Shown here: piece after piece, positions 1,757 through 20,945 of the stretch
How positions within the stretch are numbered: the first letter of the stretch is position 1
Layout: each line of letters begins with the position of its first letter
Origin: Candidatus Aenigmatarchaeota archaeon
Lineage (GTDB): Archaea; Aenigmatarchaeota; Aenigmatarchaeia; Aenigmatarchaeales; JAHLMS01
NCBI GenBank assembly: GCA_018920245.1
Contig: JAHLMS010000003.1
Span: forward strand, 4,588 to 44,881
Length of the DNA: 40,294 nt
Direction: 5' to 3'
Made by a program: the position numbers and the translations under genes
Notes under the pieces: model-generated
Databases searched by the model: none
What the model was told of the DNA's origin: nothing
Seen by the model: the letters and a program-made list of their open reading frames with translations, nothing else

Positions 1757-2437
1757 TCATCTTAGAATGTCCATCGGAACACCAAAACCCAAGAACCAGA
1801 GCACAGCAATTATTATGGGCTGGTGCATGAAATAAATCAATAGCGAGTGTCTACCTACCCATTCAAGCGGGCCGAATTTCAATTGCCATTTGAAGCTCCG
1901 TTCACCATCTGGATAAATCAACCTGCCAAAATATATGCCAAATGCATAGACACCGAGCCATGGCAAGAGTGGAAAATAGTCGAACGTTGCGAAGCTCGTT
2001 GGCAGTAGCCATAATAGATATGGGTTCGTGTTGCCGACTGTTGCCAATGCGAAGCAAGACATTGCGATCAATGCGAGCGCTCCCCCACGCAAACGCAGCA
2101 AGGGTATGGCGAGCACGCCAGCAAGCGCAAAGAAGTGCAGTATTCCAAAGATTATCCAGCCGCCTCTGAGTAATAGGAATGACAACGCCGTTATGATGCC
2201 CGCCGCAGCAGCGAGCTTTGCTGACCGCCAGACAATAGGCTTTATACTTCTATAGCGGTGCCAGCTTATGTGCGTGCATATTCCAGATATAAACATGAAG
2301 GAGCCAGCGATGGCAAACGCAACAACGACCGCCGGCGCTTGACCAGTTTTAAAATATGTGATATCGAACAGCGCATGGTAGGCTATCATTGCAATAACTG
2401 CTATGCTTCTGCCTATGTCCAGTTCAGAATAGCGCAT
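1757..2437 (-). CDS. DUF1624 / heparan-alpha-glucosaminide N-acetyltransferase-like membrane protein
   Basis: ELDIGRSIAVIAMIAYH start, FGILHF, DYFPLLPW and GRHSLLIYFMHQP motifs; multiple TM segments. Confidence 0.88.
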   Translation of the reverse strand: MRYSELDIGRSIAVIAMIAYHALFDITYFKTGQAPAVVVAFAIAGSFMFISGICTHISWHRYRSIKPIVWRSAKLAAAAGIITALSFLLLRGGWIIFGILHFFALAGVLAIPLLRLRGGALALIAMSCFALATVGNTNPYLLWLLPTSFATFDYFPLLPWLGVYAFGIYFGRLIYPDGERSFKWQLKFGPLEWVGRHSLLIYFMHQPIIIAVLWFLGFGVPMDILR

Positions 2438-2461
2438 GTTGTTGTTTTGTAATGCCTCTAT

Positions 2462-4189
2462 TTAAACGATTGCAGAGCCTAAGATCTGCTTTGCTAATAC
2501 TGCCTCTTCAGTTAGTCCCAGCTCTTCCAATACTTTCACGTCTGCATTGGTTATAATGACGCTCAACTCGTCGTTCTCGAAGATATGCCTGCCGACCTGT
2601 GGACCGTCGATGGAAACGGCTACGCGTTGCCCGGCTTTTGCCTCGAGAAGGCTCATGCCCTCGTGCTGTATTGCTTTGACCTCGCCTACTTCCTTTCCAT
2701 CCTTCTGCAATTTCACCCCGGGCTTGAGCACACCCGCGAGCACCTCTACGCCCACGATAGCCGGCTTGCTGATATGGAATACCATGCCCGGCAGCAGTTT
2801 GATTCGTGCGGGCCTCGTTATCGATGCGAGCTTCGCTTCTCTAAGTTTTGCACGCTCAGCTGAAAGCCAGCCCTCGAACTCCTCGATCAGACGATAGATT
2901 ACATTGCTCGAAATTATCTTCACATGCCTATCTGTCGCTTCCCTGATTATATCCGGATCAGCAGGCACGTTGAACGCAAGAATGACACGCTTTAGAGGAT
3001 CTGTTAACGCCTCAGATTCAACAATATCCCTGCGGTTCACGGGCCCGACATGCGCACGCTTTATCTGGATTTTTTTATCTTTAAGAACTGATATCAATGC
3101 CTCGAGGCTGCCAAGCGTGTCAGCGCGGATTATAACACCCTCCTCTGCGCTCTCGAACTCGATGGCCGAGATACTGGCTTGTAGTTCGGCTTTTGCTCTC
3201 TCTATCTGGTCATCTGAGCTTACAATGGCAATCGGGCTGCCAGCGATAGCTGTTTCGAGTTCAGGCGCTGCTATGCGTATGCCGGCTGCTGCGCTGACAG
3301 CATGCACAGGTTCAAATTCCTTTTCTACACGTATCTCTTTTAGAGGCTTTGGTTTAAGCAAGGCGCGTATCCTTGTGACTATCGGCTTTGGGCCACCGAC
3401 AATCAACCAATCTCCAGTATGCGCAGTGCCATCATAAAGCACGACATCAATAGTCATTCCCAGACCCCGTATCTCTTTCACCTCAAGAATGCTACCTTTA
3501 CCAGGACCGGTCGTCAGCTTGAGTTGTTCGCTTAGAAAGGCTTGTGCAAGACCAGAAAGTATCATAAGAAGTTCAGGTATGCCTTCGCCCGTCACACCGG
3601 AAACAGGCACTATGGCCACTGTCTTGCGAAAATCAGTGATACGATCAAAACGTTCGGATTCATAACCCCTTTCAGACAGCTGGCCTATAATACGATATAT
3701 AAGGCCATCAAGGATGTTCCTGACATGCTGCGGCTGCTTAGCAAGGCTCTCGTTGAACCCTGCACCTGGATGGCTGACCCAACCCTCCACACAGTCCACT
3801 TTCGTAGCTGCCACAAGAAAAGGCGTCCTGAACTCTTTGAGAATGCTCATGCTTTCCTCGGTCTGTTCCTGTATGCCCTCGTTGATGTCTATGACAAGTA
3901 TAGCGAGGTCTGCAATCGAACCTCCTCTGCGACGCATCGCAGTAAAGGCGGCATGGCCCGGCGTGTCGAGAAGCAAGAGACCAGGCACTTTCAGCTCTAT
4001 CTTCAATTTTTCAAGCAATGGCCCGGCTATCTTCCGTATCACGTCGGCCGGTATCTCGGAAGCGCCTGCATGCTGCGTTATAGCACCTGCTTCGCGGCTG
4101 GCGACGGCCGTGCCTCTAATCTTGTCTAACAGCGTGGTCTTGCCGTGGTCGACATGGCCGAGCACGGCTACTATCGGCTGTCTCATCAT
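2462..4189 (-). CDS. infB: Translation initiation factor aIF5B (IF-2)
   Basis: RQPIVAVLGHVDHGKT, REAGAITQH, DTPGH, RRRGGSIAD and DTLGSLEAL motifs. Confidence 0.98.
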   Translation of the reverse strand: MMRQPIVAVLGHVDHGKTTLLDKIRGTAVASREAGAITQHAGASEIPADVIRKIAGPLLEKLKIELKVPGLLLLDTPGHAAFTAMRRRGGSIADLAILVIDINEGIQEQTEESMSILKEFRTPFLVAATKVDCVEGWVSHPGAGFNESLAKQPQHVRNILDGLIYRIIGQLSERGYESERFDRITDFRKTVAIVPVSGVTGEGIPELLMILSGLAQAFLSEQLKLTTGPGKGSILEVKEIRGLGMTIDVVLYDGTAHTGDWLIVGGPKPIVTRIRALLKPKPLKEIRVEKEFEPVHAVSAAAGIRIAAPELETAIAGSPIAIVSSDDQIERAKAELQASISAIEFESAEEGVIIRADTLGSLEALISVLKDKKIQIKRAHVGPVNRRDIVESEALTDPLKRVILAFNVPADPDIIREATDRHVKIISSNVIYRLIEEFEGWLSAERAKLREAKLASITRPARIKLLPGMVFHISKPAIVGVEVLAGVLKPGVKLQKDGKEVGEVKAIQHEGMSLLEAKAGQRVAVSIDGPQVGRHIFENDELSVIITNADVKVLEELGLTEEAVLAKQILGSAIV

Positions 4190-12012: not shown

Positions 12013-12798
12013 TCAGCCGATGTATTTCAGCTCTTCCGGCTTTTTGCCGCTTTTTTGCATCTGTTCCATTGCTTGGCTTTGTATTTCCTCGAGTTTCTTT
12101 ATGAACTCGTGCATGGCCTTAACCTTTTCTTCGAGCTTCGTCAAGTCCACCTTTATGTTGATTATCTTCTGCAATACAATGAGCACTGACTCGGCAGCTG
12201 TTGGGTCTGTTATTATTGGGAAGCCGGAGGTTTCACCGAGTAACACAAACCCCTTCATTCCCTGCATCTTACCTATACCAAGAATAAGGCCTGATGCGCC
12301 TACTATTGTTCCTATCTGACCGGTGACCTTGGTTTCGATATCGTACCTTTTAAGGTCCTTAGCAACATCCGCATCAGTTGCGATTCCGAAAACCTTCGGC
12401 TTCTCAGTAATCTTTCCTGTACTGAAACCACCAATTGTTATCACTTCCTTGCATCCCAACGCCCTGATAAATTCCAATATCTTCCCCGCAACTTCGTAGT
12501 GACCCTTTGGGTCGTAGGTCTGGCAGTCTCCTATGAGCATTATGATGTCCCTGCCTTTTGGGTTCTTCCAGTAATAGAATTCGTTGCGCAGTGTGTGTAT
12601 CATGTCATTATGAATCATGACGAACGGAAAGAAGTAGGGCGAGTAGAGCTCAGCAAACTTTTTCGCCTTTAGTTCGTGGACCAGATATCCGACAGCTATT
12701 CTGCCTATGTTGCCTATGCCTGGTAGGCCGACGAGTGCTATGGGATTCTTGAGCTTCGGTTTTTCTTCACATATTATTTTCGTTTCAATCAGAAACAT
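12013..12798 (-). CDS. PAC2 family proteasome assembly chaperone
   Basis: [25 protein letters not shown] and LLGETSG..DP motifs; conserved position after nop10; exact start uncertain. Confidence 0.92.
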
Positions 12799-12833
12799 CA
12801 CCTGTGCAATTTTTGTTCCTTGCACATTTAAAG

Positions 12834-12986
12834 TTATTCCTGTGCTGCCCTTCTATACTTACCATATTTCGTTTCCTTGCCCAATGAAAAGCGCGGTGGA
12901 TGTGCGCTAACAGTTGCGGAGCCGTCTGTAGGACACTTCTCCTTTAGGGTATATCGTCCGCACTTTGGGCACTTTCGCATGCGCAT
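12834..12986 (-). CDS. nop10: H/ACA RNP protein Nop10
   Basis: Below the ORF-track cutoff; manual translation MRMRKCPKCGRYTLKEKCPTDGSATVSAHPPRFSLGKETKYGKYRRAAQE (YTLK, HPPRFS, YGKYR). Confidence 0.95.
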   Translation of the reverse strand: MRMRKCPKCGRYTLKEKCPTDGSATVSAHPPRFSLGKETKYGKYRRAAQE

Positions 12987-12991
12987 ATTAA

Positions 12992-13582
12992 TTACCACTT
13001 CTTTTGCAATATAAGGTATCGTTTCAACTTCTTTCCACTGCCCTCTTCAGTTACATGGCCACCAAAAGCTGCGCCCTTGAACGCTTTCTTTACAAGCTCG
13101 AACTCAGCAGATGTTGCAGGATAGAACTGGATACCTGCCTTGCCTCTTGATTTGAGCACACGATTGCTCTCGGTCGCGATTTTTTTGTATTGCCTTTTGA
13201 CATCTTCCATGGTCTTTCCAGATATCCATTGCAATGTTGAAACGGAGATTAACGCATCAAGACTGTTCTCGCGAAAAGGGAGGTTGCGCCAATCGCCGCG
13301 CACCAGCAGTCGCATGCCCTTTGCCTTCGCCAGCTTGAGCATCTCAACAGAGACATCTATACCAATAGGCAGACAGCCGAACTGTTCAATCACTTTCATG
13401 CTGAAGCCGGTGCCGCATCCAACATCGAGCACAAGACTGCGCGGTGGCAACTCAAGCTCCATCATAATGTGTTGGGTCATCTCTTCCTGCGTCTTTTTGA
13501 TGGACGAGCTACGGTCGTATTTGGCAGCTTCCTCGCCAGTCCAATATGCGACAGCACTTAGTCCGCTGATTTTTTCGGGCAT
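12992..13582 (-). CDS. Class I SAM-dependent methyltransferase, Bud23/WBSCR22-like
   Basis: VLDVGCGTG motif I; EAAKY, Q..MT, LPFR..S.D..ISVSTLQW, QFYP, FGG and KK.K.YLIL match Bud23 family motifs as recalled. Confidence 0.85.
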   Translation of the reverse strand: MPEKISGLSAVAYWTGEEAAKYDRSSSIKKTQEEMTQHIMMELELPPRSLVLDVGCGTGFSMKVIEQFGCLPIGIDVSVEMLKLAKAKGMRLLVRGDWRNLPFRENSLDALISVSTLQWISGKTMEDVKRQYKKIATESNRVLKSRGKAGIQFYPATSAEFELVKKAFKGAAFGGHVTEEGSGKKLKRYLILQKKW

Positions 13583-13583
13583 A

Positions 13584-14351
13584 TTAACCTGCCGTGAATG
13601 TGCCGCTCCCGCCAGCCGCCTGGATGCTTTTTATGGCAGCCTCGGCAGCGCTCCGCAAGGCCTTCTCGCCGGTTTTCGCATCCCTCGTCTTCATTGTCAG
13701 CATATATTTGGGAGCAGAAATGTAGCTCGCTGTTATGCCAGAAGGCAATTTTGTCAGAATGTTCTTTATCACTTCAACACCATCAGGTGCTGGGCATTTC
13801 AGTTCCAGCGTACCCTTCAGCTTCACTTCCTTGACTGCCAGCGCAGTTTCAGCGACAGCCTTTATTGCAGCAATCCATTCTGCAGGATAGCCCTTTGCAG
13901 AAAAAGCGGCTTCGTTCTCCTGCACGGTCTGGAATGCGCGGAACAGCTCGCCGAAGTCTTTTCTCATTTTGAAGCCTACCTGCTTGTAGGCAACATCTAG
14001 ACTTACATTCAGCTTCTTTGCGGCAGCAGCGAGCATCTTCTCGGCTTTGGCCTCCCGCTTGTATTCTTTAAGTTTTTCCTCTGCCTCATGATCACTGACA
14101 CGCTTCAAGCTCAGCGCGATATGCCCTTTGGCCGGTTCTACGTTCAGAACGAGCGCAACAACTGGTTGTCCTTCCTTCACGAACTCGCGGATGTCCTTAA
14201 TCCATTTTCGCGCGACTTCAGAGATGTGGACCATACCCTCTTTGCCAGGATATTCCTCAAGGGCTACGAAAGCTGAAAATGGATTCACCTTCGTGATTTT
14301 TCCTATCACGAGCTCGTTAGGCTCAGGCCACTCGCGCTCCTTCTTTGGCAT
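13584..14351 (-). CDS. eif2a: Translation initiation factor aIF2 alpha subunit
   Basis: WPEPNELVIG, LEEYPGKEGMVHISEV, KGHIALSLKRV and YISAPKY motifs. Confidence 0.97.
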   Translation of the reverse strand: MPKKEREWPEPNELVIGKITKVNPFSAFVALEEYPGKEGMVHISEVARKWIKDIREFVKEGQPVVALVLNVEPAKGHIALSLKRVSDHEAEEKLKEYKREAKAEKMLAAAAKKLNVSLDVAYKQVGFKMRKDFGELFRAFQTVQENEAAFSAKGYPAEWIAAIKAVAETALAVKEVKLKGTLELKCPAPDGVEVIKNILTKLPSGITASYISAPKYMLTMKTRDAKTGEKALRSAAEAAIKSIQAAGGSGTFTAG

Positions 14352-14375: not shown

Positions 14376-15527
14376 TTAAGGTTTGGTGTTGGGCACGGCA
14401 AATAATAACAGCACTGCGCCGCATGTCGCCAAAATAGCACTGAACATGAATGCGCTTGTCGGGTTGATGGCCTGCCATAAACCTCCGGCCACAAGACCTC
14501 CAATCAAACCGCTGGCACCGATTGCTGCATGGAGTGTTCCAAGTGCGGTCCCCTTGAGTTGTGCGGGTGCAAGGTCGGCAGCGAGTGCACGCTGATTGCC
14601 GTCGAACAGCGCATATGCAATTCCGTAGCAGGCAAACATAATTGCAACCATGATCATATCCGTGGCGAGTGCGAAACCGGCAGCCACGACAGCAAACAAC
14701 AACCAACCAAAGAGTAGGACGTTCCGTCTGCCGATTCTGTCTGCAAGCCTGCCGGCTGGAACGAGCATCACTGCCATCAAGACATTGAGGACAACATACA
14801 GCGCGACAGTGGTTAGCACTGAGCCTGTCAATTGCTGGACGCGCAGTATGAACAGCATGTATGTGAAGTTTCCCATACCGAATAGCGTCGCTGCAGCCAC
14901 ATATAGCCGAAGAGGCAACGGCAAAGCCTTCAGACCAATACTAAGCGCGATTTTTCTAGCATGTTTGGACACATCTTTCACAAAAAACATCGGTATAAGT
15001 GAGAGCAACGAGATGGCACCGGCCAGCAGAACTATAGTCTGATATTGTGTTCCTATCACAGCAATCAGCATAACAGCCGCAATTGAACCTATTATTGCAC
15101 CGACAGTATCCAGAGTGCGCTGGAGTCCAAATGCCGCGCCACGCACCCCCCATGCAACAGATTCGGCTATTAGCGCATCGCGTGGTGCATCGCGTATGCC
15201 CTTGCCAGCCCGTTCAAGCGGACGGAGTATAAGCACATGCTGCCAGGTGGCAGCTGCCGCAAGTCCGAGCCGTGCCAATGCCGACGATAGATATCCAATC
15301 CACAGGAATGGCTTGCGCCTGCCTATACGGTCTGACCACCAGCCAGAAGGCAGCTTGAGTCCGGTTGCAATCATATCACCTACGCCCCCTATCAGCCCAA
15401 CAGCGAGCGGCCCACCCCCCAGGCTCACAATGAGCAACGGCAGTATCGGCATCAACATTTCGCTACCCACATCGTTAAGGCCGCTGATTATACCTAGTAA
15501 AATAACATTGCGACTGAGTCCTAACAT
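14376..15527 (-). CDS. MFS transporter
   Basis: About 12 TM segments; SDRIGRRKP and ADRIGRR motif A; GKGIRDAPRDALIA. Confidence 0.93.
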   Translation of the reverse strand: MLGLSRNVILLGIISGLNDVGSEMLMPILPLLIVSLGGGPLAVGLIGGVGDMIATGLKLPSGWWSDRIGRRKPFLWIGYLSSALARLGLAAAATWQHVLILRPLERAGKGIRDAPRDALIAESVAWGVRGAAFGLQRTLDTVGAIIGSIAAVMLIAVIGTQYQTIVLLAGAISLLSLIPMFFVKDVSKHARKIALSIGLKALPLPLRLYVAAATLFGMGNFTYMLFILRVQQLTGSVLTTVALYVVLNVLMAVMLVPAGRLADRIGRRNVLLFGWLLFAVVAAGFALATDMIMVAIMFACYGIAYALFDGNQRALAADLAPAQLKGTALGTLHAAIGASGLIGGLVAGGLWQAINPTSAFMFSAILATCGAVLLLFAVPNTKP

Positions 15528-15557
15528 GCAAAAAGTGATGTGTAATGACAAATAAAA

Positions 15558-15743
15558 TTAATCCATTACGCTCAGCACTTTTGCCTTTAGCCTTCCGCGG
15601 CCGCCAGTTGTTTCGGCCAGCTCAGCACCGCAGACGAGGCATTTGACCGTGCTCGAAGGCTTATTAAAAATAGTCTGCTCGTTTTTGCACTTGCCACATA
15701 CGACCTTCAAGAACTTGCTTGTAGGGCGTCGTACACTCCTCAT
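15558..15743 (-). CDS. rps27e: 30S ribosomal protein S27e
   Basis: SKFLKVVCGKCKNEQTIF...CLVCG...TGG. Confidence 0.97.
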   Translation of the reverse strand: MRSVRRPTSKFLKVVCGKCKNEQTIFNKPSSTVKCLVCGAELAETTGGRGRLKAKVLSVMD

Positions 15744-15745
15744 AG

Positions 15746-16033
15746 TTACACCTTCACGAGCTCGAACTTCTTAACGCGGAAGCCCGAACCTATATTGTGC
15801 CCTTTGCCGCATTCCTTGCAGACATAGCTAAGATCGAGTTTCCGTGTGGGCTTCGCCCTGTCACGTGGATTGCTTTTCGGGAATGAGCCGTAACCGCGCA
15901 TCTTGCGTTTGAACCTGCGCTGTCCGCTCGCAAGCATGCGTTTGATTTTTCGCACACTAACACGCTTAACCTCGTGTTGTGTGTGCTTGCGGCAATATGG
16001 GCAGTATCGGTTCTGTATTTTAGGGGCATTCAT
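15746..16033 (-). CDS. rpl44e: 50S ribosomal protein L44e
   Basis: YCPYCRKHTQH, GQRRF...GYGSFP and KPTRKLDL..CKECGK motifs. Confidence 0.96.
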   Translation of the reverse strand: MNAPKIQNRYCPYCRKHTQHEVKRVSVRKIKRMLASGQRRFKRKMRGYGSFPKSNPRDRAKPTRKLDLSYVCKECGKGHNIGSGFRVKKFELVKV

Positions 16034-16149
16034 GATTATCAAAAGAATTTAGAATATTGAACCTATTTAAAGGCTATTCTAATGTGAGCTGTAAAGTTAG
16101 CGACACCTATTTGGGTGCAAAAAACAAAATCGGGCACCGACACATTTAA

Positions 16150-16270
16150 AAACTTCGGGCAACTCCTTCGCTCCTTTCAGTCGCTCGGGGACGTTGCACT
16201 CTCGCTATCACTCGGCTCCACTCCAATTTTTCCTTCGGAAAAACTGCGTATAAGCTTATAAGTTAGTTGC
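16150..16270 (+). repeat. Left attC-like palindromic element (degenerate)
   Basis: Ends in GTTAGTT (16262-16268); shares CGTTGCACT, GCTCCACyC.AATTT and AAAACT blocks with the element at 18880-19031; internal TTTTTC/GAAAAA hairpin; no clear R'' box. Confidence 0.5.
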
Positions 16271-16344
16271 AATTGGCGGGCTTTAACGGAAAGTCGCTTA
16301 ACTATTTCAGAACATTTAAATAACTCTTTTACTTTTTAATCAAT

Positions 16345-16605
16345 ATGGAGAAAAACTAAGAAATAGAAACATTACAGGATGTTCTTAATCAAACCTTGAA
16401 ATTGATTTCTTTATATAAAAAATCAGATTTAACGATACCATTTGCCCTAAAAGGTAATCTTGGTGAATTTATTGTTGCTATTGAATTACTGAAAAGATTT
16501 CCTAATCATAAAATAGACTATCGTGGCGGAGCATTTCCTGGTATTGATATTTCTGTTGAAAATGTAAAAATACAAGTTAAAACTCAGATCAAAAGACCAC
16601 GATGA
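16345..16605 (+). pseudogene. Truncated PD-(D/E)XK-type nuclease fragment
   Basis: ATG at 16345 is in frame but has TAA at codon 5 (16357); KGNLGE...PGIDI...IQVKT motif; ends just after the catalytic motif. Confidence 0.6.
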
Positions 16606-16682
16606 TAAAGAACATTATGTGAAAAAAGCAGTTGAATGGATAAAAAGAAAATTAAATACCACGTCTTAACTTAAAATTTCTT

Positions 16683-17392
16683 TTAGATCTTTTGTTGTGC
16701 CAACTCAAGACAAAGGGCGGTTGATTCCCATTTTGACACCCAAATTCCAACACCGCTTCTCCAATATTTTTCCATATATATCCTTCTAATTAATGATTCC
16801 AATGCCCTTTGAATTATCATATTAATAGGATCTATGTCCGACTTATCACATTCCTTGCCAACTGCCACATTAGGATCTTAACTTCTTAGGAGGACGTCTA
16901 TTAATTTCTCGCTCGTGTTCTTCATGTCAATGCTGTTTAAGTAATCAATAGCTGCAGCGAGAAATCCCGATCCTCTCCATTCCGAACTTCCTGCAAGAAT
17001 AGAGTCTTCATTAATACATTTTAGAATTGATTTATGTAGTTTTTCATAGGATGGAAAATGATCTTTCAGGTCAAATGTAGCAATTAGTTTTGCTAAACGG
17101 CATGCATCCCAAAAATCTGTTCCAAACGAGCCATCATCATGAATCTTTGAATTGAGGTATGAAAAAGAATCTTTAAGTGAGAATGATTTGTAAGTGTGAT
17201 CATCTTTGCGCACAAGCCACTGGTCGTTTTCTTTTAAACCGGTCATTAAAAGTAACTCTGTAATTATTGTTGTACGTATAGGGTTCCAAGATTCTCAAAA
17301 TTTTGCCAACAACCCTCATCCGAAACTGAGTCTAAGATGAAGTTTAATGATCTACGAAGCGATTCCTCTAGCTCATAATCATTTAATGACAT
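16683..17392 (-). pseudogene. Frameshifted gene, possibly prenyltransferase/squalene-cyclase repeat-like
   Basis: Three consecutive fragments (17392-17264, 17246-16878, 16868-16683) with DEGCW, DDGSFG and WESTALCL repeat-like motifs; the frame switches near 17295. Confidence 0.5.
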
Positions 17393-17982
17393 GCTTCCCC
17401 TCGTTTTTGTTTTATATATTCGTCCGTTGTGAGTATAACTGCCCAACCATTTGCAAGAGTTTCACTGACTACTTTCTTGATTTGATTTTGCGTTAAGGAA
17501 GGAAGGTCGGGACATCCTGTAGCGTCAATTATGAAATCAACGAAATAATCCATATCATGAGCTTCACGGGCAGTTGATTCACAACAGAAATTTGTCATGA
17601 AGCCACAAATTACCACTTTTTTAACCTTATGTTTTTTCAAAATCCGATCTAAATCAGTATTTTTGAAAGCCGAATACCTGTTTTTCGTTATCTCGATGAC
17701 ATTCTTCGGTCGCTTTAAATTTTCCGCATATTTGACTTCATTAGAGTCTTCTTTGAAATTGAAATCTTCAGATTCTCCGGCAAAGTCAAACATTCTACCA
17801 AGGTCACTACCGTCTTTTTTATGCATGTGTCGAACCATGATTATCAGTTCGTTTCGTTTCGTGAAATTATCTATTAATTTGTTTATATTTTCTATAGTTT
17901 TATCATTTCCGACACAAAACAAATTGGAATCCGACTCAGTATATATCTTTTGTACATCTATAACCAATAATGCTTCTTTCAT
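17383..17982 (-). CDS. Isochorismatase family cysteine hydrolase
   Basis: LLVIDVQ, KNRYSAF and GFMTNFCCESTAR (D-K-C triad); GAGGTGA SD. Confidence 0.93.
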   Translation of the reverse strand: MKEALLVIDVQKIYTESDSNLFCVGNDKTIENINKLIDNFTKRNELIIMVRHMHKKDGSDLGRMFDFAGESEDFNFKEDSNEVKYAENLKRPKNVIEITKNRYSAFKNTDLDRILKKHKVKKVVICGFMTNFCCESTAREAHDMDYFVDFIIDATGCPDLPSLTQNQIKKVVSETLANGWAVILTTDEYIKQKRGEACH

Positions 17983-18095
17983 TTTTTCACCTCACTTTAA
18001 TTTTTCCTCCTTTCCTTGAGTTTTCATTTTTTCAACTGTTGTTGGTGCATATATACATCGACCATATATTGCATGCGTTGTTTTAACCCTTTTGC

Positions 18096-18440
18096 TCACT
18101 CTCTTATCCACATTTTTTGTTTAAAATGACCGTAACCTCCTGAAATAGCAGTGAAAATTACTGCAAAAAGGGTTGTTCCGACAGCAATAGGTGCAGGAAA
18201 TCCTAACCAGAAATGCAATATTGGAAGCATAACACTGCAACCACCAGTTCCTATCCATCCACCTAAAAGTCCTGCAGCTAACCCCACAAGAATTAGTATT
18301 ACACCCATTGTGACATTAATCTGCGGAACATCTTTAATAGTTTGTTTTCCAGCAGAAAATACAAAAATAGTTATTGCTATCATAACCAATAGCAAAAAAA
18401 TAGTAAATTTGTTTTTATTAAAAAATGATTTTATATCCAT
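18096..18440 (-). pseudogene. Truncated sulfite exporter TauE/SafE (TSUP) family permease
   Basis: GLLGGWIGTGGCSVMLP and AVGTTL motifs; ends after less than half the usual family length. Confidence 0.75.
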
Positions 18441-18705
18441 TTTTTAATACCCCCAATACTCTGAAAATGCTATAAACCTTACGATTTTTTATTGAGTAAA
18501 TTATTTTTCTACCTTCTCTTCTGGACTTTAAAACACCTAAATCAACAAGTTTTAACAGTTGCATAGAAGTATTGGATTGTGTCCTATGAATCAAAAAAGG
18601 AATTTCACAAGCACATTTTTCTCCTTTGAGAAGAGTCTCAATTATTCTATATCTGGTTTCTTCTGATAGTGCTTTTAATAATTTTAAGTTATCTGCTCTG
18701 CTCAT
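18418..18705 (-). CDS. ArsR/SmtB family transcriptional regulator
   Basis: KALSEETRYRII..L..GEKCACEI, QSNTS and GVLKSRREGR..IY motifs. Confidence 0.93.
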   Translation of the reverse strand: MSRADNLKLLKALSEETRYRIIETLLKGEKCACEIPFLIHRTQSNTSMQLLKLVDLGVLKSRREGRKIIYSIKNRKVYSIFRVLGVLKNGYKIIF

Positions 18706-18727
18706 ATATCAATAAATAATGATATAT
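18704..18727. promoter_or_regulatory. Putative ArsR operator (inverted repeat ATATATCA-N8-TGATATAT)
   Basis: Perfect 8-bp inverted repeat overlapping the ArsR start codon. Confidence 0.6.
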
Positions 18728-18928
18728 TATATAAAATTTTCTATCAGGAAACACTCAAAATTAAGCCTAAACGAAATCCCTCCATGACAAACGAACCAAA
18801 ATTGCCCCTTGATACTTATTCTTTATGGCTTACTGTGTTCGCTTGATTGAATACGCCCCTGAAATTACTTTGATTTTTTGCCCTTCGGCACCGTTGCACT
18901 TTTCCTCGGTCCCCGCTACGCTTCGACA

Positions 18929-19031
18929 CAACTAACAGCGATTTAACGGTTCCGCTCACCTGCGGTTCGCTCCACCCAAATTTTGCTCCATTTCATTTCG
19001 CAAAACTTCTTTTATCCCGAAACGTTAGGTG
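18929..19031 (+). repeat. attC-like recombination site
   Basis: CAACTAAC (R''-like, 18929-18936) ... GTTAGGT (GTTRRRY R', 19024-19030), about 100 bp apart with internal hairpins such as TTTTGC/GCAAAA. Confidence 0.65.
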
Positions 19032-19047
19032 ACGTTTGCTTTACAGC

Positions 19048-19668
19048 TCATTCTAATGCAACCTTTGCCATGCCCTTGTCCAGCAGGAGCTTCGCTGTTT
19101 CAGCAGGTAATGATATCATGTCCCCTGCTTTCATTGGGCCATAACCCACCATGTCAGTGCCAATGAACCGAGGCAGGTCGGTCAGAATGTTGAGCAATAT
19201 GTGGCCGTTCTGAGATTTAGACACAGAGGTGGCTGGCGGTTGCGGCTGTTCCTTTTTTGTTTCATCCTTCATTGCAGCGACACTCTCAATAGCTGCCGTA
19301 ACCTTGCTTTCAGCCAGAGCTGCAGGACCTATTATGCTATTGATGGTTGTGGTTCTGAATGCCGTGAGCTGGGCAACAATGCTGTCGAAGAAAGCAGCCT
19401 CGGCAGTAGTCATACCTGCTGGTGGAGGCGAGCCGCGGACAGCACGGATTGCCGCCATGACTATTTTTCGCTCTCGCCTATTTATCAGGTCTTCTATCAA
19501 CTTTTTCGCGTTATCAGCCTCGAGCAGACTCATGGTATCTTGCTTTGCCATCTTTGCAGCCAACCATGCACGTACAGACTGAAAGAAATTTTCAGGCAGC
19601 ACCTGCAGTGCTTCATCTTTCTCTGCCCTGTGGCAGGCGCGGATAGTTTCATAACTGATAAGGTCCAT
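19048..19668 (-). CDS. GINS complex subunit (Gins51/15 type)
   Basis: ISYETIR...EK...LQVLPENFF, RERKIV and C-terminal B-domain LPRFIGTDM..YGP...GD motifs; immediately downstream of the primase. Confidence 0.88.
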   Translation of the reverse strand: MDLISYETIRACHRAEKDEALQVLPENFFQSVRAWLAAKMAKQDTMSLLEADNAKKLIEDLINRRERKIVMAAIRAVRGSPPPAGMTTAEAAFFDSIVAQLTAFRTTTINSIIGPAALAESKVTAAIESVAAMKDETKKEQPQPPATSVSKSQNGHILLNILTDLPRFIGTDMVGYGPMKAGDMISLPAETAKLLLDKGMAKVALE

Positions 19669-19682
19669 AGCAATCACGCTAA

Positions 19683-20945
19683 TTATTTGATGCTCTTATT
19701 ATTAATCTTTTGTTTTGCTGCCTTTGTGCAGGATAGACGAGTGAACGCCGCCGGGTTTTTTATTCGTGCGCAGAGTTCTGTCGGCTGACATATGCCTATG
19801 GAACGGTAGAATGTGTCATTATCACAGTTCGCCGGCAAAAGATTTCTTGCTTGCCTCTTGTGCCATGCCAGCTGCGTTGATATGAAACGGTTTGGCAGAG
19901 GGCCTTTGGGATTCTTGTTGTTCCACTCATTTACAGCAATATCTATCTTTTCCCATGGCCAGTTAGCCGCACGAAGGAAAGATACGAGCGTGAAGAGCGA
20001 GCGCTTGCGACCGTCTGAGATGCCATTGCGGAGCAATCGTATGCATGGAGGAAAATGCTCTTCCGGTATTGGCGCACCTTTTTGCATAGACCTTTCTATA
20101 TTCTTTTCTTGAGGCTTGTGCTTAGCTGACCAGTCCAAAGCACTTACGAGTAGCTCTGTCGCCTCTTCCGGTTTGTTCACTAAGAACGGCCCGCCAGTTG
20201 CTCCCGGTCTGGCGTCCTCAGGCTTGAATTTTTTCAGCTTGAACAAACGTAACGGAAGTGAAACGAGCCAGGTTTTCTCATGCAGCGAATATGGTGCACG
20301 GAACAGGTGGCGCGCACCCCAATTGGACTCAATGTCCAGAAAATTCCATGGGGTTATTTCGGATATCGATGCGCCTTTTGTGAGCGCCGCCATTCCTCCT
20401 GCCTCTGCAATTAGTGCATCCATTAGTTCGTCCTCGATCTTAACCTTCAAGAAGCCCGCAATTGCTTGAGGTATCTCAGGATATCGCGCAGCACTGGGCT
20501 TGTAGTCTATGCTCGCAGGCAATGCCTTAGAGGCTATTGCAACATGAAATCCGCGTCTGCCCGAGAACTTTATTGTCGGCTTAACACCCATATCAGCGAG
20601 AAAATTACAAACCACTATTGCAGCTGTTCTTGCGTAATTGAACTCAGACTTGCTATCAATGTCAAATATGATATCGAAGCCCTTTCGTGCGGCATCCAGC
20701 TCAGCCCTGCTCAACGAAGTGGACAACGCCATAGGTGAATGCCAATGTTCAACGGAGCAGTGCCAGCTCACTATGCCGGTCCTGACCTTCGCGGCAATGT
20801 CAGATGGATATTGCAACACATCAGGCCTTTTCGAGTAGCGACCATCTCGGTAGGCACCGACCACTTCCCTGTCGCGTGCTATGTCGAGCAGTCCTTTGAT
20901 GACCTCAGGCCGCGAATAGTAGGCAAGAATCTCGGTCTGATTCAT
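19683..20945 (-). CDS. priSL: Fused DNA primase PriS-PriL
   Basis: AEP motifs FDIDSK, KFSGRRGFH and RAPYSLHEKT, followed by a PriL C-terminal Fe-S domain (FPPCI, DGRKR, ANC, GIC, LC..IKNP); start MNQTE at 20945. Confidence 0.92.
   Translation of the reverse strand: MNQTEILAYYSRPEVIKGLLDIARDREVVGAYRDGRYSKRPDVLQYPSDIAAKVRTGIVSWHCSVEHWHSPMALSTSLSRAELDAARKGFDIIFDIDSKSEFNYARTAAIVVCNFLADMGVKPTIKFSGRRGFHVAIASKALPASIDYKPSAARYPEIPQAIAGFLKVKIEDELMDALIAEAGGMAALTKGASISEITPWNFLDIESNWGARHLFRAPYSLHEKTWLVSLPLRLFKLKKFKPEDARPGATGGPFLVNKPEEATELLVSALDWSAKHKPQEKNIERSMQKGAPIPEEHFPPCIRLLRNGISDGRKRSLFTLVSFLRAANWPWEKIDIAVNEWNNKNPKGPLPNRFISTQLAWHKRQARNLLPANCDNDTFYRSIGICQPTELCARIKNPAAFTRLSCTKAAKQKINNKSIK

Follow-up and report, generated by a model that had tools for sequence, protein, structure and literature searches.

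The closest characterised counterpart of the protein described here is yeast Bud23 (human BUD23-WBSCR22), which together with Trm112 (TRMT112) is the methyltransferase for m7G1575 (m7G1639 in human) of 18S rRNA (PDB 4QTT/4QTU, 6G4W, 7WTN-7WTW). Yeast G1575 corresponds to E. coli G1338 according to a published table (PMC13215694), and G1338 and A1339 are described as contacting the anticodon stem of the P-site tRNA (PMC7668247). Two specialist reviews (PMC5372719, PMC6144793), in their passages on this enzyme, state that archaea are without a Bud23 relative and that the archaeal 16S rRNAs analysed to date had no modification at this position. None of the organisms behind the latter statement belongs to the carrier lineages dealt with below. 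The first-pass annotation of the present DNA spoke of a factor usually regarded as eukaryotic; this is true of the reviews, but BUD23 had already been listed for Asgard archaea, not for DPANN archaea, in Supplementary Table S10 of Birikmen et al. 2021 (PMC8481954). A literature search for Bud23 with Asgard or with DPANN yielded no paper, the supplements of other papers being out of reach, and relatives already bear the label "18S rRNA (guanine1575-N7)-methyltransferase" from automatic pipelines. Another archaeal class I methyltransferase, Hvo_0019, is known in complex with Trm112 (PDB 6F5Z; van Tran et al. 2018, PMC6144793).

The window, i.e., the whole stretch of DNA that was analysed, comprises 40,294 nucleotides and belongs to a genome of 515 kb with 89% completeness; all coordinates given here are on the minus strand. 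The gene of interest (12992..13582; MT in the following) starts with ATG and encodes a Bud23-type class I SAM-dependent methyltransferase of 196 aa, which consists of the methyltransferase domain only. Upstream of it, Pfam and NCBIfam identified ribosomal protein L44e (15746..16042; PF00935, 2e-21) as the first gene of the cluster, followed by ribosomal protein S27e (15558..15743; PF01667, 1.1e-19), which is a member of the conserved L44e-S27e-aIF2a cluster, an MFS transporter (14376..15551; PF07690, 3.1e-41) and the aIF2 alpha subunit (13584..14351; PF07541 and an S1 domain; NF003064, 259.9 bits with a cut-off of 252). Downstream are the H/ACA RNP protein Nop10 (12834..12998; PF04135, 2.4e-19; GTG start, alternative ATG at 12986), a PAC2-family proteasome assembly chaperone (12013..12825; PF09754, 1.1e-47; TIGR00162, 243 bits with a cut-off of 200), Rpb6/RpoK and enolase. 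The stop codon TAA of aIF2-alpha is followed by one T and the ATG of MT, which leaves a gap of 1 nt; between the TAA of MT and the ATG of Nop10 there are 5 nt (TTAAT), or, with the GTG start of Nop10, the two genes overlap by 7 nt. The tight packing between aIF2a and Nop10 that had been claimed was thus borne out by the reading of both junctions. The order L44e-S27e-aIF2a is the same in relatives, and in those outside the genus S27e stands directly before aIF2-alpha; the MFS gene, like MT, is a lineage-specific insert into this cluster.

The family of MT could not be decided with Pfam or NCBIfam, because the matches were generic or below threshold: Pfam gave Methyltransf_11 alone (1.1e-16), and no NCBIfam model reached its cut-off. 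The protein contains motif I (LDVGCGTG, residues 52-59) and the conserved acidic residues D76 and D97. Further motifs are Y13....E18AAKY22, Q32EEMT36, P102FRENSLDALISVSTLQW119, Q152FYP155, F173GG and K184KLKRYLIL192; in a HMMER alignment, which placed residues 12-192 of MT opposite residues 12-198 of the yeast Bud23 chain, their counterparts were ..EAHKY, QAKMT, PFRAGSFDAAISISAIQW, QFYP, FSGG and KKNKKYYLV, respectively. The first-pass annotation had listed these motifs as those of yeast Bud23; all are present and in the stated order, except that the first spacing is Y+4 and not Y+3. Its statement that the long basic C-terminal tail of Bud23 is missing was confirmed, since PF12589 (WBS_methylT) was absent from MT in the Pfam search, the protein ends 4 residues past the last strand, and MT covers columns 4-205 of a eukaryotic Bud23 profile of 287 columns (hhalign). 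Among 148 library relatives, 29 carry PF12589, every one of them longer than 225 aa. Because the WBS_methylT extension is absent, MT was filed under the methyltransferase-domain family only and not under the eukaryotic two-part architecture.

A phmmer search of 177,635 PDB sequences matched Bud23 with an E-value of 3.2e-23, a likeness which chance would not explain. The top five of 47 matches were Bud23-type chains (67-86 bits, residues 8-192), the best one with 85.7 bits vs 43.9 bits for the next family. When a profile of 42 archaeal relatives was used against the PDB, Bud23 reached 173 bits (E 3.6e-50) and the next family 79. Comparison with 18 eukaryotic Bud23 sequences by hhalign, an HMM-HMM check which had been suggested beforehand, resulted in a probability of 100 and an E-value of 1.7e-60 over 195 columns. 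The AF2 model of MT (pLDDT 95.7) has the seven-strand Rossmann topology, and in a Foldseek search ranks 1-8 were all Bud23 (TM 0.81-0.92, rmsd 1.5-2.1 Å), followed on rank 9 by Hvo_0019 (TM 0.67). The reciprocal check likewise led back to MT: a eukaryotic Bud23 with complete PF12589 (P0099), searched against the genome, matched the MT reading frame with 80.7 bits and the next protein with 14.7 bits. The genome holds a single strong match to the family (243 bits). These results from sequence, profile, fold, reciprocal best match and conserved family motifs support the Bud23-like identity that had been proposed; MT is a member of the Bud23 methyltransferase-domain family (KEGG K19306), and its nearest characterised relative is Bud23.

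In comparison with Bud23, the whole methyltransferase domain aligns (about 31% identity, TM 0.88-0.90, rmsd 1.9 Å), and the N-terminal helices, the SAM motifs and the S.S..QW and QFYP motifs are shared. Unlike Bud23, MT is without the basic WBS_methylT domain of about 80 residues, which is described as binding helix 18 in the pre-40S particle, and its gene shares an operon with those of aIF2-alpha and Nop10. As the host is a prokaryote, neither a nucleus nor a 90S processome nor a partner like Dhr1 should be expected for MT. Hvo_0019, the best structural match outside Bud23, has an identity of only 17% to MT (22-54 bits) and does not contain the Bud23 motifs. Family columns were compared in 56 archaeal, 29 eukaryotic and 25 outgroup rows, the latter biased, as they were picked with the family's own motifs. 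In this set S115 is present in 100% of the archaeal, 100% of the eukaryotic and 16% of the outgroup rows, and Q152 in 98%, 100% and 4%, respectively; the motifs at 22, 32, 113-119 and 152-155 are kept in 88-100% of archaeal and 86-100% of eukaryotic rows. Judging from class I methyltransferase topology, the residues Y22 and Q32 and those of S.S..QW and QFYP would line a guanine pocket.

A search of the genome for Trm112, as had been recommended, revealed a protein of 56 aa encoded elsewhere (G000:C2; 36.8 bits with a cut-off of 22). In the predicted complex of MT, Trm112 and SAM the ipSAE value was 0.93 (best control 0.00), a mark which 116 of 157 solved complexes attain, as do 2 of 215 mismatched pairs, and which may in this case be due to likeness to the solved Bud23-Trm112 structures. 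The runs had at least 93% of contacts in common, and the pLDDT of the partner was at least 93. Residues 91-97 and 100-105 of MT face residues 44-50 of Trm112 in the model. This interface coincides with the beta3/beta4 zipper as described in a review (PMC5372719), which is also the site of Trm112 in the Hvo_0019 complex. Binding of Trm112 by MT as a heterodimer, with the interface at the known beta-zipper, is therefore predicted. Trm112 was found in 15 of the 17 genomes of the phylum which carry MT; in the remaining two (82% and 85% complete) it was not found, nor in three of five carriers from other phyla. Among 32 non-carriers of the order, 16 were found to have it. The presence of Trm112 was considered as specific evidence for MT and rejected, because other likely clients, namely an Mtq2-type protein (138.7 bits) and a UPF0020/Trm11-type protein, are encoded in the same genome, and so it does not single out MT.

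Within the phylum the distribution of MT is patchy, with 17 carriers among 371 genomes and none among the 21 genomes of one family (f3); thus, the gene is dispensable. The gene for aIF2-alpha is immediately upstream of MT in eight of the 17 carriers, which belong to two orders, and the full arrangement aIF2a-MT-Nop10 is present in five. Relatives without the gene have aIF2a followed directly by Nop10 (5/5), with an empty junction. Relatives of the family occur also in Micrarchaeota and Woesearchaeota. Among named homologues, those nearest to MT bear the labels Aenigmarchaeota and Micrarchaeota, which is consistent, together with the small genome and those of the relatives (0.3-1 Mb), with a DPANN-type host as had been supposed. 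No consistent translation context was noticed for the copies of Micrarchaeota, Woesearchaeota and other DPANN archaea, whose neighbours include an M24 peptidase, a radical SAM protein and a DEAD-box helicase, among others.

Asgard archaea have a family match in 81 of 301 genomes, many of them with two diverged paralogues, unlike the genome of MT with its one strong match. The Asgard Bud23-like proteins resemble MT in being tail-less (200-220 aa), in falling into its family in both profile and tree, and in having a ribosomal gene adjacent: in all five Loki/Hermod loci examined, the gene stands back to back with eS25. The Asgard neighbourhood consists of eS25, a tRNA and a RagA-like GTPase, that of MT of aIF2a and Nop10. 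An rRNA gene had been considered in the regions downstream of the Asgard copies, where there are few or no ORFs; this idea was dropped, since Rfam showed only the upstream tRNA at 8/8 loci and no rRNA.

Phylogenetic trees separated the family from the outgroups with an SH-aLRT value of 99 in a quick tree of 110 rows. With 98 rows the value for the same branch was 46 in a quick tree; a careful tree of these rows gave it moderate support (86/50, and presence in 84% of 200 bootstrap trees), the outgroup sample being limited and picked by motif. The archaeal clade nearest to eukaryotes in the careful tree is a Loki/Hermod Asgard clade (64/91). One group of Asgard sequences (Asgard-A) falls with eukaryotes and Micrarchaeota (91/92); a second (Asgard-B) forms a separate clade (98/87), which is basal only through outgroup rooting. 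MT belongs to another clade, of 25 rows and weak support (45/88), which is not the nearest sister of eukaryotes. One sequence (P0041) was sister of the eukaryotes in the quick tree of 110 rows (support 96), but the careful tree did not confirm this position, which was therefore dropped. Family likeness and host type fit the designation of MT as a DPANN orthologue of Bud23; in the strict sense it would be a putative orthologue, Loki/Hermod being nearer to the eukaryotes in the tree.

On balance, it is somewhat more likely than not that MT is a functional, tail-less enzyme of the Bud23 family, which acts together with Trm112 and produces m7G at the equivalent of G1338 in 16S rRNA. The partner of MT would be the zinc-knuckle Trm112 of 56 aa, whose C-terminal strand would form a beta-zipper with strand beta3 of MT (residues about 91-97). 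SAM would be bound by motif I and two acidic residues, D76 and D97, and a flipped-out guanine could be held by Y22, Q32, S113/S115, Q118-W119 and Q152-F-Y-P155. As substrate, N7 of the 16S rRNA guanine which is equivalent to yeast G1575 and E. coli G1338 would be the most likely candidate; this nucleotide is situated in the head, where it should contact the anticodon stem of the P-site tRNA, and methylation may take place on a late pre-30S particle. For MT we infer the guanine-N7 chemistry, the rRNA target and this timing. MT would be co-transcribed with aIF2-alpha and Nop10 and so be produced alongside factors of translation and ribosome maturation. As it is without the C-terminal extension by which Bud23 holds helix 18 in pre-40S, its role would probably be that of a simple modifying enzyme and not that of a scaffold for assembly.

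The enzyme could perhaps have the Bud23 fold and modify RNA at another site, in 16S or 23S rRNA or in tRNA, on guanine or on a different base, as a paralogous branch whose specificity drifted once it had parted from the lineage of eukaryotic Bud23. This we regard as rather unlikely, but it has to be taken seriously: the clade of MT lies apart from that of eukaryotes and Asgard-A, on a weak backbone, and the two diverged paralogues in many Asgard genomes indicate that the family does sub-functionalise. The missing tail, which helps to position eukaryotic Bud23 on pre-40S, would fit such a change of target; in the human pre-40S structures, however, as they are described in the same source (PMC9723619), it is the methyltransferase domain alone that holds G1639. 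Residues of the family which would line the pocket are kept in 90-100% of the archaeal and eukaryotic rows, and the gene stands in a ribosomal or translational context in two independent lineages, both of which speak against another target.

A role as an assembly or quality-control factor of the small subunit, at the P-site region of pre-30S, with methylation being dispensable, is improbable. In eukaryotes it is the presence of Bud23 that is needed and not its activity, as reported for yeast and human (PMC5372719; PMC5699541), and competition of Bud23 and Rio2 for the P site has been described (PMC8848936). For its scaffold role, however, eukaryotic Bud23 relies on the C-terminal extension, placed on helix 18, and on partners like Dhr1; this tail is absent in MT. 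Since all SAM-binding and pocket residues are conserved, selection on catalysis can be argued, and a distribution as patchy as that in the phylum is unlike that of an essential assembly step.

Very little probability is given to a small-molecule or lipid methyltransferase of the BioC, UbiE or DVU_1556 type, in which the likeness to Bud23 would be due to the shared Rossmann fold. The best NCBIfam matches were indeed models of this kind, yet their scores are far below the cut-offs: DVU_1556 (NF045667) with 58.9 vs 155 bits, BioC (TIGR02072) with 53.2 vs 184.95 and UbiE-MenG (TIGR01934) with 34 vs 158.35, the cut-offs of the MenG/UbiE models ranging from 158 to 327. BioC, the malonyl-ACP O-methyltransferase, resembles MT in being of the Methyltransf_11 type, with a conserved Tyr in the N-terminal helix and ..QW after strand 4, and BioC-like outgroups share parts of the ..QW and Y..P motifs (32-44% of the outgroup rows); these rows form, however, a separate clade. 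Over the full length of MT, Bud23 is ahead of other solved methyltransferases by about 40 bits in the sequence search and about 94 in the profile search. A grouping with BioC/UbiE, which had been named beforehand as evidence against Bud23, was not obtained, and the AU test rejected a clade of the MT group with BioC-like rows (delta lnL 33.3, p 0.0017). Finally, the operon is translational and not biosynthetic, and no biotin genes were present among the neighbours of MT.

An origin of the gene by contamination or by recent insertion of foreign DNA, or its decay to a functionless remnant, as its patchiness in the phylum and the other lineage-specific insert in the cluster, the MFS gene, might suggest, is hardly credible in view of an intact frame with junctions of 1 and 5 nt inside an archaeal operon, GC (0.487) and GC3 (0.548) values which match those of the neighbours, a position kept across two orders at 38-67% protein identity, and active-site residues conserved in 42 archaeal relatives.

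With the reading of MT as a tail-less Bud23-type methyltransferase acting with Trm112, a broader proposal may be made, which is tentative and somewhat unlikely to hold in full: methylation of the P-site guanine (G1338-equivalent) by Bud23-Trm112 could be an archaeal trait, present beforehand with tail-less enzymes in Asgard and DPANN archaea, and not a eukaryotic invention, and in this DPANN class the L44e-S27e-aIF2alpha-Nop10 operon would have taken up the gene. A copy of the DPANN type is present in members of the Asgard phylum with small genomes, which would be a sign that genes were exchanged between the two groups. If the proposal is true, the mark would be produced together with the very factor that delivers initiator tRNA to the site which G1338 inspects. 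MT predicts an rRNA mark which has not yet been mapped in archaea, and the presence or absence of the gene at one operon junction provides natural pairs of carriers and non-carriers for mapping it. With a complete tail-less enzyme of the Bud23 type and Trm112 in an archaeon of 0.5 Mb, the existence of m7G at the P-site guanine before eukaryotes becomes testable, and so does the role of a bare methyltransferase domain without the assembly-factor tail of eukaryotes.

The methyltransferase ORF (12992-13582, minus strand; 196 aa, ATG start) lies in the minus-strand order L44e, S27e, MFS transporter, aIF2-alpha, methyltransferase, Nop10, PAC2, Rpb6/RpoK, enolase, as assigned with Pfam and NCBIfam. 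Read on that strand, the TAA of the upstream aIF2-alpha gene (13584-14351, minus strand; Pfam and NCBIfam) is followed by a single T and the ATG of the methyltransferase. Between the TAA of the methyltransferase and the Nop10 ATG stands TTAAT; if Nop10 begins instead at an alternative GTG, the two genes overlap by 7 nt. The tight packing reported in the first-pass annotation was thus found in the junction sequence, with spacers of 1 and 5 nt. GC and GC3 of the gene are like those of its neighbours.

With Pfam the protein matched the generic Methyltransf_11 (1.1e-16), and no NCBIfam model reached its cut-off, the best being DVU_1556 (58.9 vs. 155) and BioC (53.2 vs. 185). Among 47 matches to PDB sequences the top five were Bud23-type chains: yeast Bud23 4QTT_B scored 85.7 bits (E 3.2e-23; chain 12-198 aligned to query 12-192) and human Bud23 6G4W_q 67 bits, against 43.9 bits for the next family; a profile from 42 short archaeal relatives gave 173 bits for Bud23 and 79 for the next family. 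Both the profile-profile and the reciprocal-search checks suggested earlier agreed with this assignment. Comparison of the 42-row archaeal alignment with 18 eukaryotic Bud23 sequences by hhalign yielded probability 100 (E 1.7e-60, 195 columns, 31% identity), and a eukaryotic Bud23 representative (with complete PF12589, the C-terminal tail domain) searched against the 515-kb genome returned the methyltransferase ORF at 80.7 bits, everything else remaining at or below 14.7. The hhalign match covers columns 4-205 of the 287 eukaryotic columns, i.e., the entire methyltransferase domain, and stops before the C-terminal extension, so that the tail is indeed absent. The yeast Bud23 motifs listed in the first-pass annotation are all present in the order given there, but one spacing is off by one residue (Y13 + 4 + EAAKY22). 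The AlphaFold2 model was confident (pLDDT 95.7, pTM 0.92); with Foldseek against the PDB, ranks 1-8 were yeast or human Bud23 (TM 0.81-0.92, rmsd 1.5-2.1 A) and rank 9 was Hvo_0019, a Haloferax Trm112 client (TM 0.67).

A joint alignment of 56 archaeal, 29 eukaryotic and 25 outgroup methyltransferase rows was inspected for columns common to the archaeal and eukaryotic rows, generic SAM motifs being set aside. Such columns (archaeal, eukaryotic and outgroup conservation, respectively) were Q32 (98%, 90%, 40%), G69 (86%, 97%, 24%), S115 (100%, 100%, 16%), Q118 and W119 (both 96% and 100%; outgroup 44% and 40%), Q152 (98%, 100%, 4%), Y154 (95%, 97%, 32%) and P155 (93%, 93%, 40%); as the outgroup rows had been gathered by patterns built from these same motifs, the true contrast should if anything be larger, but the sample is not a neutral one. 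The shared columns fall in the N-terminal lid helices and in the loops after strands 4 and 5, which is where the substrate sits in class I methyltransferases. Judging from this topology, the family-specific residues probably line the guanine pocket.

In a first quick tree (110 rows, 199 columns, 25 outgroups) all of the short archaeal forms and eukaryotic Bud23 stood together against the outgroups with an SH-aLRT of 99, and eukaryotic Bud23 was monophyletic (99). A second set of 98 rows was obtained by omitting 12 eukaryotic, 9 outgroup and 7 near-redundant rows and adding 16 from Asgard archaea; the branch between ingroup and outgroup then had a support of only 46 in a quick tree and of 86/50 (ultrafast bootstrap/SH-aLRT) in a careful tree, occurring in 84% of 200 bootstrap trees. 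In the careful tree the eukaryotic clade (100/100) had a Loki/Hermod Asgard clade as its sister (64/91), both within a 45-row clade (91/92) that included Micrarchaeota, and a second Asgard paralogue clade (98/87) was basal. The library protein P0041, sister of the eukaryotes in the 110-row quick tree, was not recovered in that position in the careful tree. The window protein belonged to a weakly supported 25-row clade (45/88) with metagenomic DPANN-type proteins, the MAG chromosome L015 and three members of the Asgard phylum. The genomes of the latter are small (1.3-1.4 Mb), and their copies (G376:C1:26811-27386, G388:C2:66611-67186 and G410:C12:18141-18719; loci L144-L146) are not among the Loki-type copies, which may point to transfer or to a more ancient split.

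A grouping with BioC-type methyltransferases, named in the first-pass annotation as one finding that would speak against Bud23, was rejected: joining the window clade, delimited after the tree had been seen, to the BioC-like outgroup cost a delta lnL of 33.3 (AU test, p 0.0017), and as an identity for the protein BioC or DVU_1556 scored well under the NCBIfam cut-offs. Membership in the Bud23 family is well supported; the support stops short of strict one-to-one orthology with eukaryotic Bud23.

A representative library of 1.84 billion proteins contained 268 relatives at E <= 1e-10. The PF12589 tail was present in 29 of the 148 scanned, the remainder being mostly 180-215 aa long. Full-length matches on genome contigs came from Micrarchaeota (3), Promethearchaeota/Loki (5), Hermodarchaeota (1), Woesearchaeota (1) and further archaea, and the cluster mate of a close relative carries an Aenigmarchaeota label. 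Within the window's phylum, 20 of 371 sampled genomes matched at E <= 1e-25, 17 strongly and over full length (>150 bits) and three partially at about 90 bits; all 21 genomes from family f3 lacked the gene. Of 301 genomes sampled from the Asgard phylum, 81 matched, many with two copies. These are two diverged Bud23-like paralogues, in tandem in at least five genomes (G540:C36:124611-125831; G469:C296:3173-4418; G611:C96:2433-3656; G662:C435:168-1392; G659:C27:4264-5518), with an in-frame TAA within one copy of the G611 pair.

Among the 17 phylum carriers, aIF2-alpha is directly upstream of the methyltransferase in eight (the window's genome G000, and G001, G011, G017, G025, G248, G249, G251), and five (G000, G001, G248, G249, G251), from two orders, show the complete order aIF2-alpha, methyltransferase, Nop10. 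In four genomes from family f4, Nop10 lies further downstream, at 0.5-2.4 kb and on the methyltransferase strand; the other carrier loci have different neighbours or reach a contig edge. The complete order is also seen in L015, which was left out of the carrier counts because it may duplicate a sampled genome. In five of five non-carrier relatives Nop10 directly follows aIF2-alpha, so that a single operon junction is polymorphic for the presence of the gene. All five Asgard loci examined place the Bud23-like gene back to back with eS25 (3/5 over the Pfam cut-off); a translation-gene context has therefore arisen independently in two lineages.

In the Asgard loci L020-L028 (about 3230-3840 and 2180-3270) the gene adjoining eS25 is the A-type Bud23-like copy. 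Beyond eS25 a tRNA of 104-106 nt, probably intron-bearing, was present in 8/8 loci, followed by a Gtr1/RagA-family GTPase gene in three of the four with the upstream ORF scanned and by a PfkB kinase in the remaining one, L027. In two Micrarchaeota loci (L017:2949-3980, L018:2967-3974) an M24 metallopeptidase gene ends 4 nt inside the Bud23-like gene, and the two are therefore probably co-transcribed.

In the window, the MFS transporter gene (14376-15551, minus strand) sits inside the ribosomal/translation cluster between S27e and aIF2-alpha. Outside the genus S27e directly precedes aIF2-alpha in relatives, with no MFS gene between; a same-genus genome has an MFS homologue at this site on the opposite strand. 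Positions 16001-20000 are low in GC (0.35-0.42 vs. a window mean of 0.475) and contain an isochorismatase-family ORF (17383-17982), a TauE/SafE fragment of 114 aa (18096-18440) matching profile positions 1-59 of 237 only, an ArsR-type HTH ORF (18418-18705) and two further ORFs with no Pfam match; no tRNA was found near this stretch.

The search of the genome for Trm112, proposed earlier, was successful: a 56-aa zinc-knuckle protein matches PF03966 with 36.8 bits (cut-off 22). Matches were obtained in 9/9 carriers and 16/32 non-carriers of the order, in 6/8 further phylum carriers (the two misses being 82% and 85% complete) and in 2/5 carriers from other phyla, both in longer ORFs; these counts come from related, non-independent genomes and a short Pfam model. 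A complex with SAM, predicted from the alignment of the methyltransferase and one of 17 Trm112 rows, scored 0.93 (best control 0.00), a mark met by 116/157 solved complexes and 2/215 mismatched pairs, but since Bud23-Trm112 structures have been solved, the high score may be due to resemblance to these and not to binding of this pair. The runs had at least 93% of contacts in common, with Trm112 pLDDT of at least 93, and placed methyltransferase residues 91-97 and 100-105 against Trm112 44-50, corresponding to the beta3/beta4 zipper reported for Trm112 complexes (PMC5372719). Mtq2-type and Trm11-type genes are also encoded, and Trm112 would thus serve more than this methyltransferase. In G039, a 351-aa ORF (L126:1489-2544) has a Trm112 zinc-knuckle fused N-terminally and, as read from the sequence, a class I methyltransferase motif I in its mid-region, resembling Trm112-methyltransferase fusions reported in some Euryarchaeota and Thaumarchaeota.

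The eukaryotic Bud23-Trm112 product is m7G1575 in yeast and m7G1639 in human; on nucleoplasmic pre-40S the guanine is held in a pocket of the methyltransferase domain, and the C-terminal extension keeps helix 18 immature (PMC9723619). Processing is described as needing the protein, not catalysis (PMC5372719; PMC5699541). The E. coli equivalent of yeast G1575 is G1338 (PMC13215694); this nucleotide and A1339 contact the P-site tRNA at its anticodon stem (PMC7668247). For the archaeal protein, the observations are limited to its fold and motifs, its gene context and the presence of a partner gene. By analogy with eukaryotic Bud23, this G1575/G1338 equivalence and the P-site contact, we propose that the methyltransferase, stabilised by Trm112, would carry out SAM-dependent N7 methylation of the G1338-equivalent 16S guanine, presumably on late pre-30S particles and without the scaffold function of eukaryotic Bud23.

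Two specialist papers state that archaea have no protein significantly similar to Bud23 (PMC5372719; PMC6144793). An older orthology study reported BUD23 "orthologs" across all taxa, bacteria included, without one Pfam domain (PMC3919561). In Supplementary Table S10 of PMC8481954, BUD23 appears for Asgard both unfiltered and after the abundance filter, for Euryarchaeota and TACK only when no filter is applied, and in none of the DPANN lists; the main text of that article makes no mention of BUD23. No paper on Bud23 in Asgard or DPANN was found by literature search, the supplements of other papers being outside its scope; three relatives carry the JGI label "18S rRNA (guanine1575-N7)-methyltransferase". 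What the window locus adds is a conserved operon junction, a polymorphism between carriers and non-carriers, and co-occurrence with Trm112.
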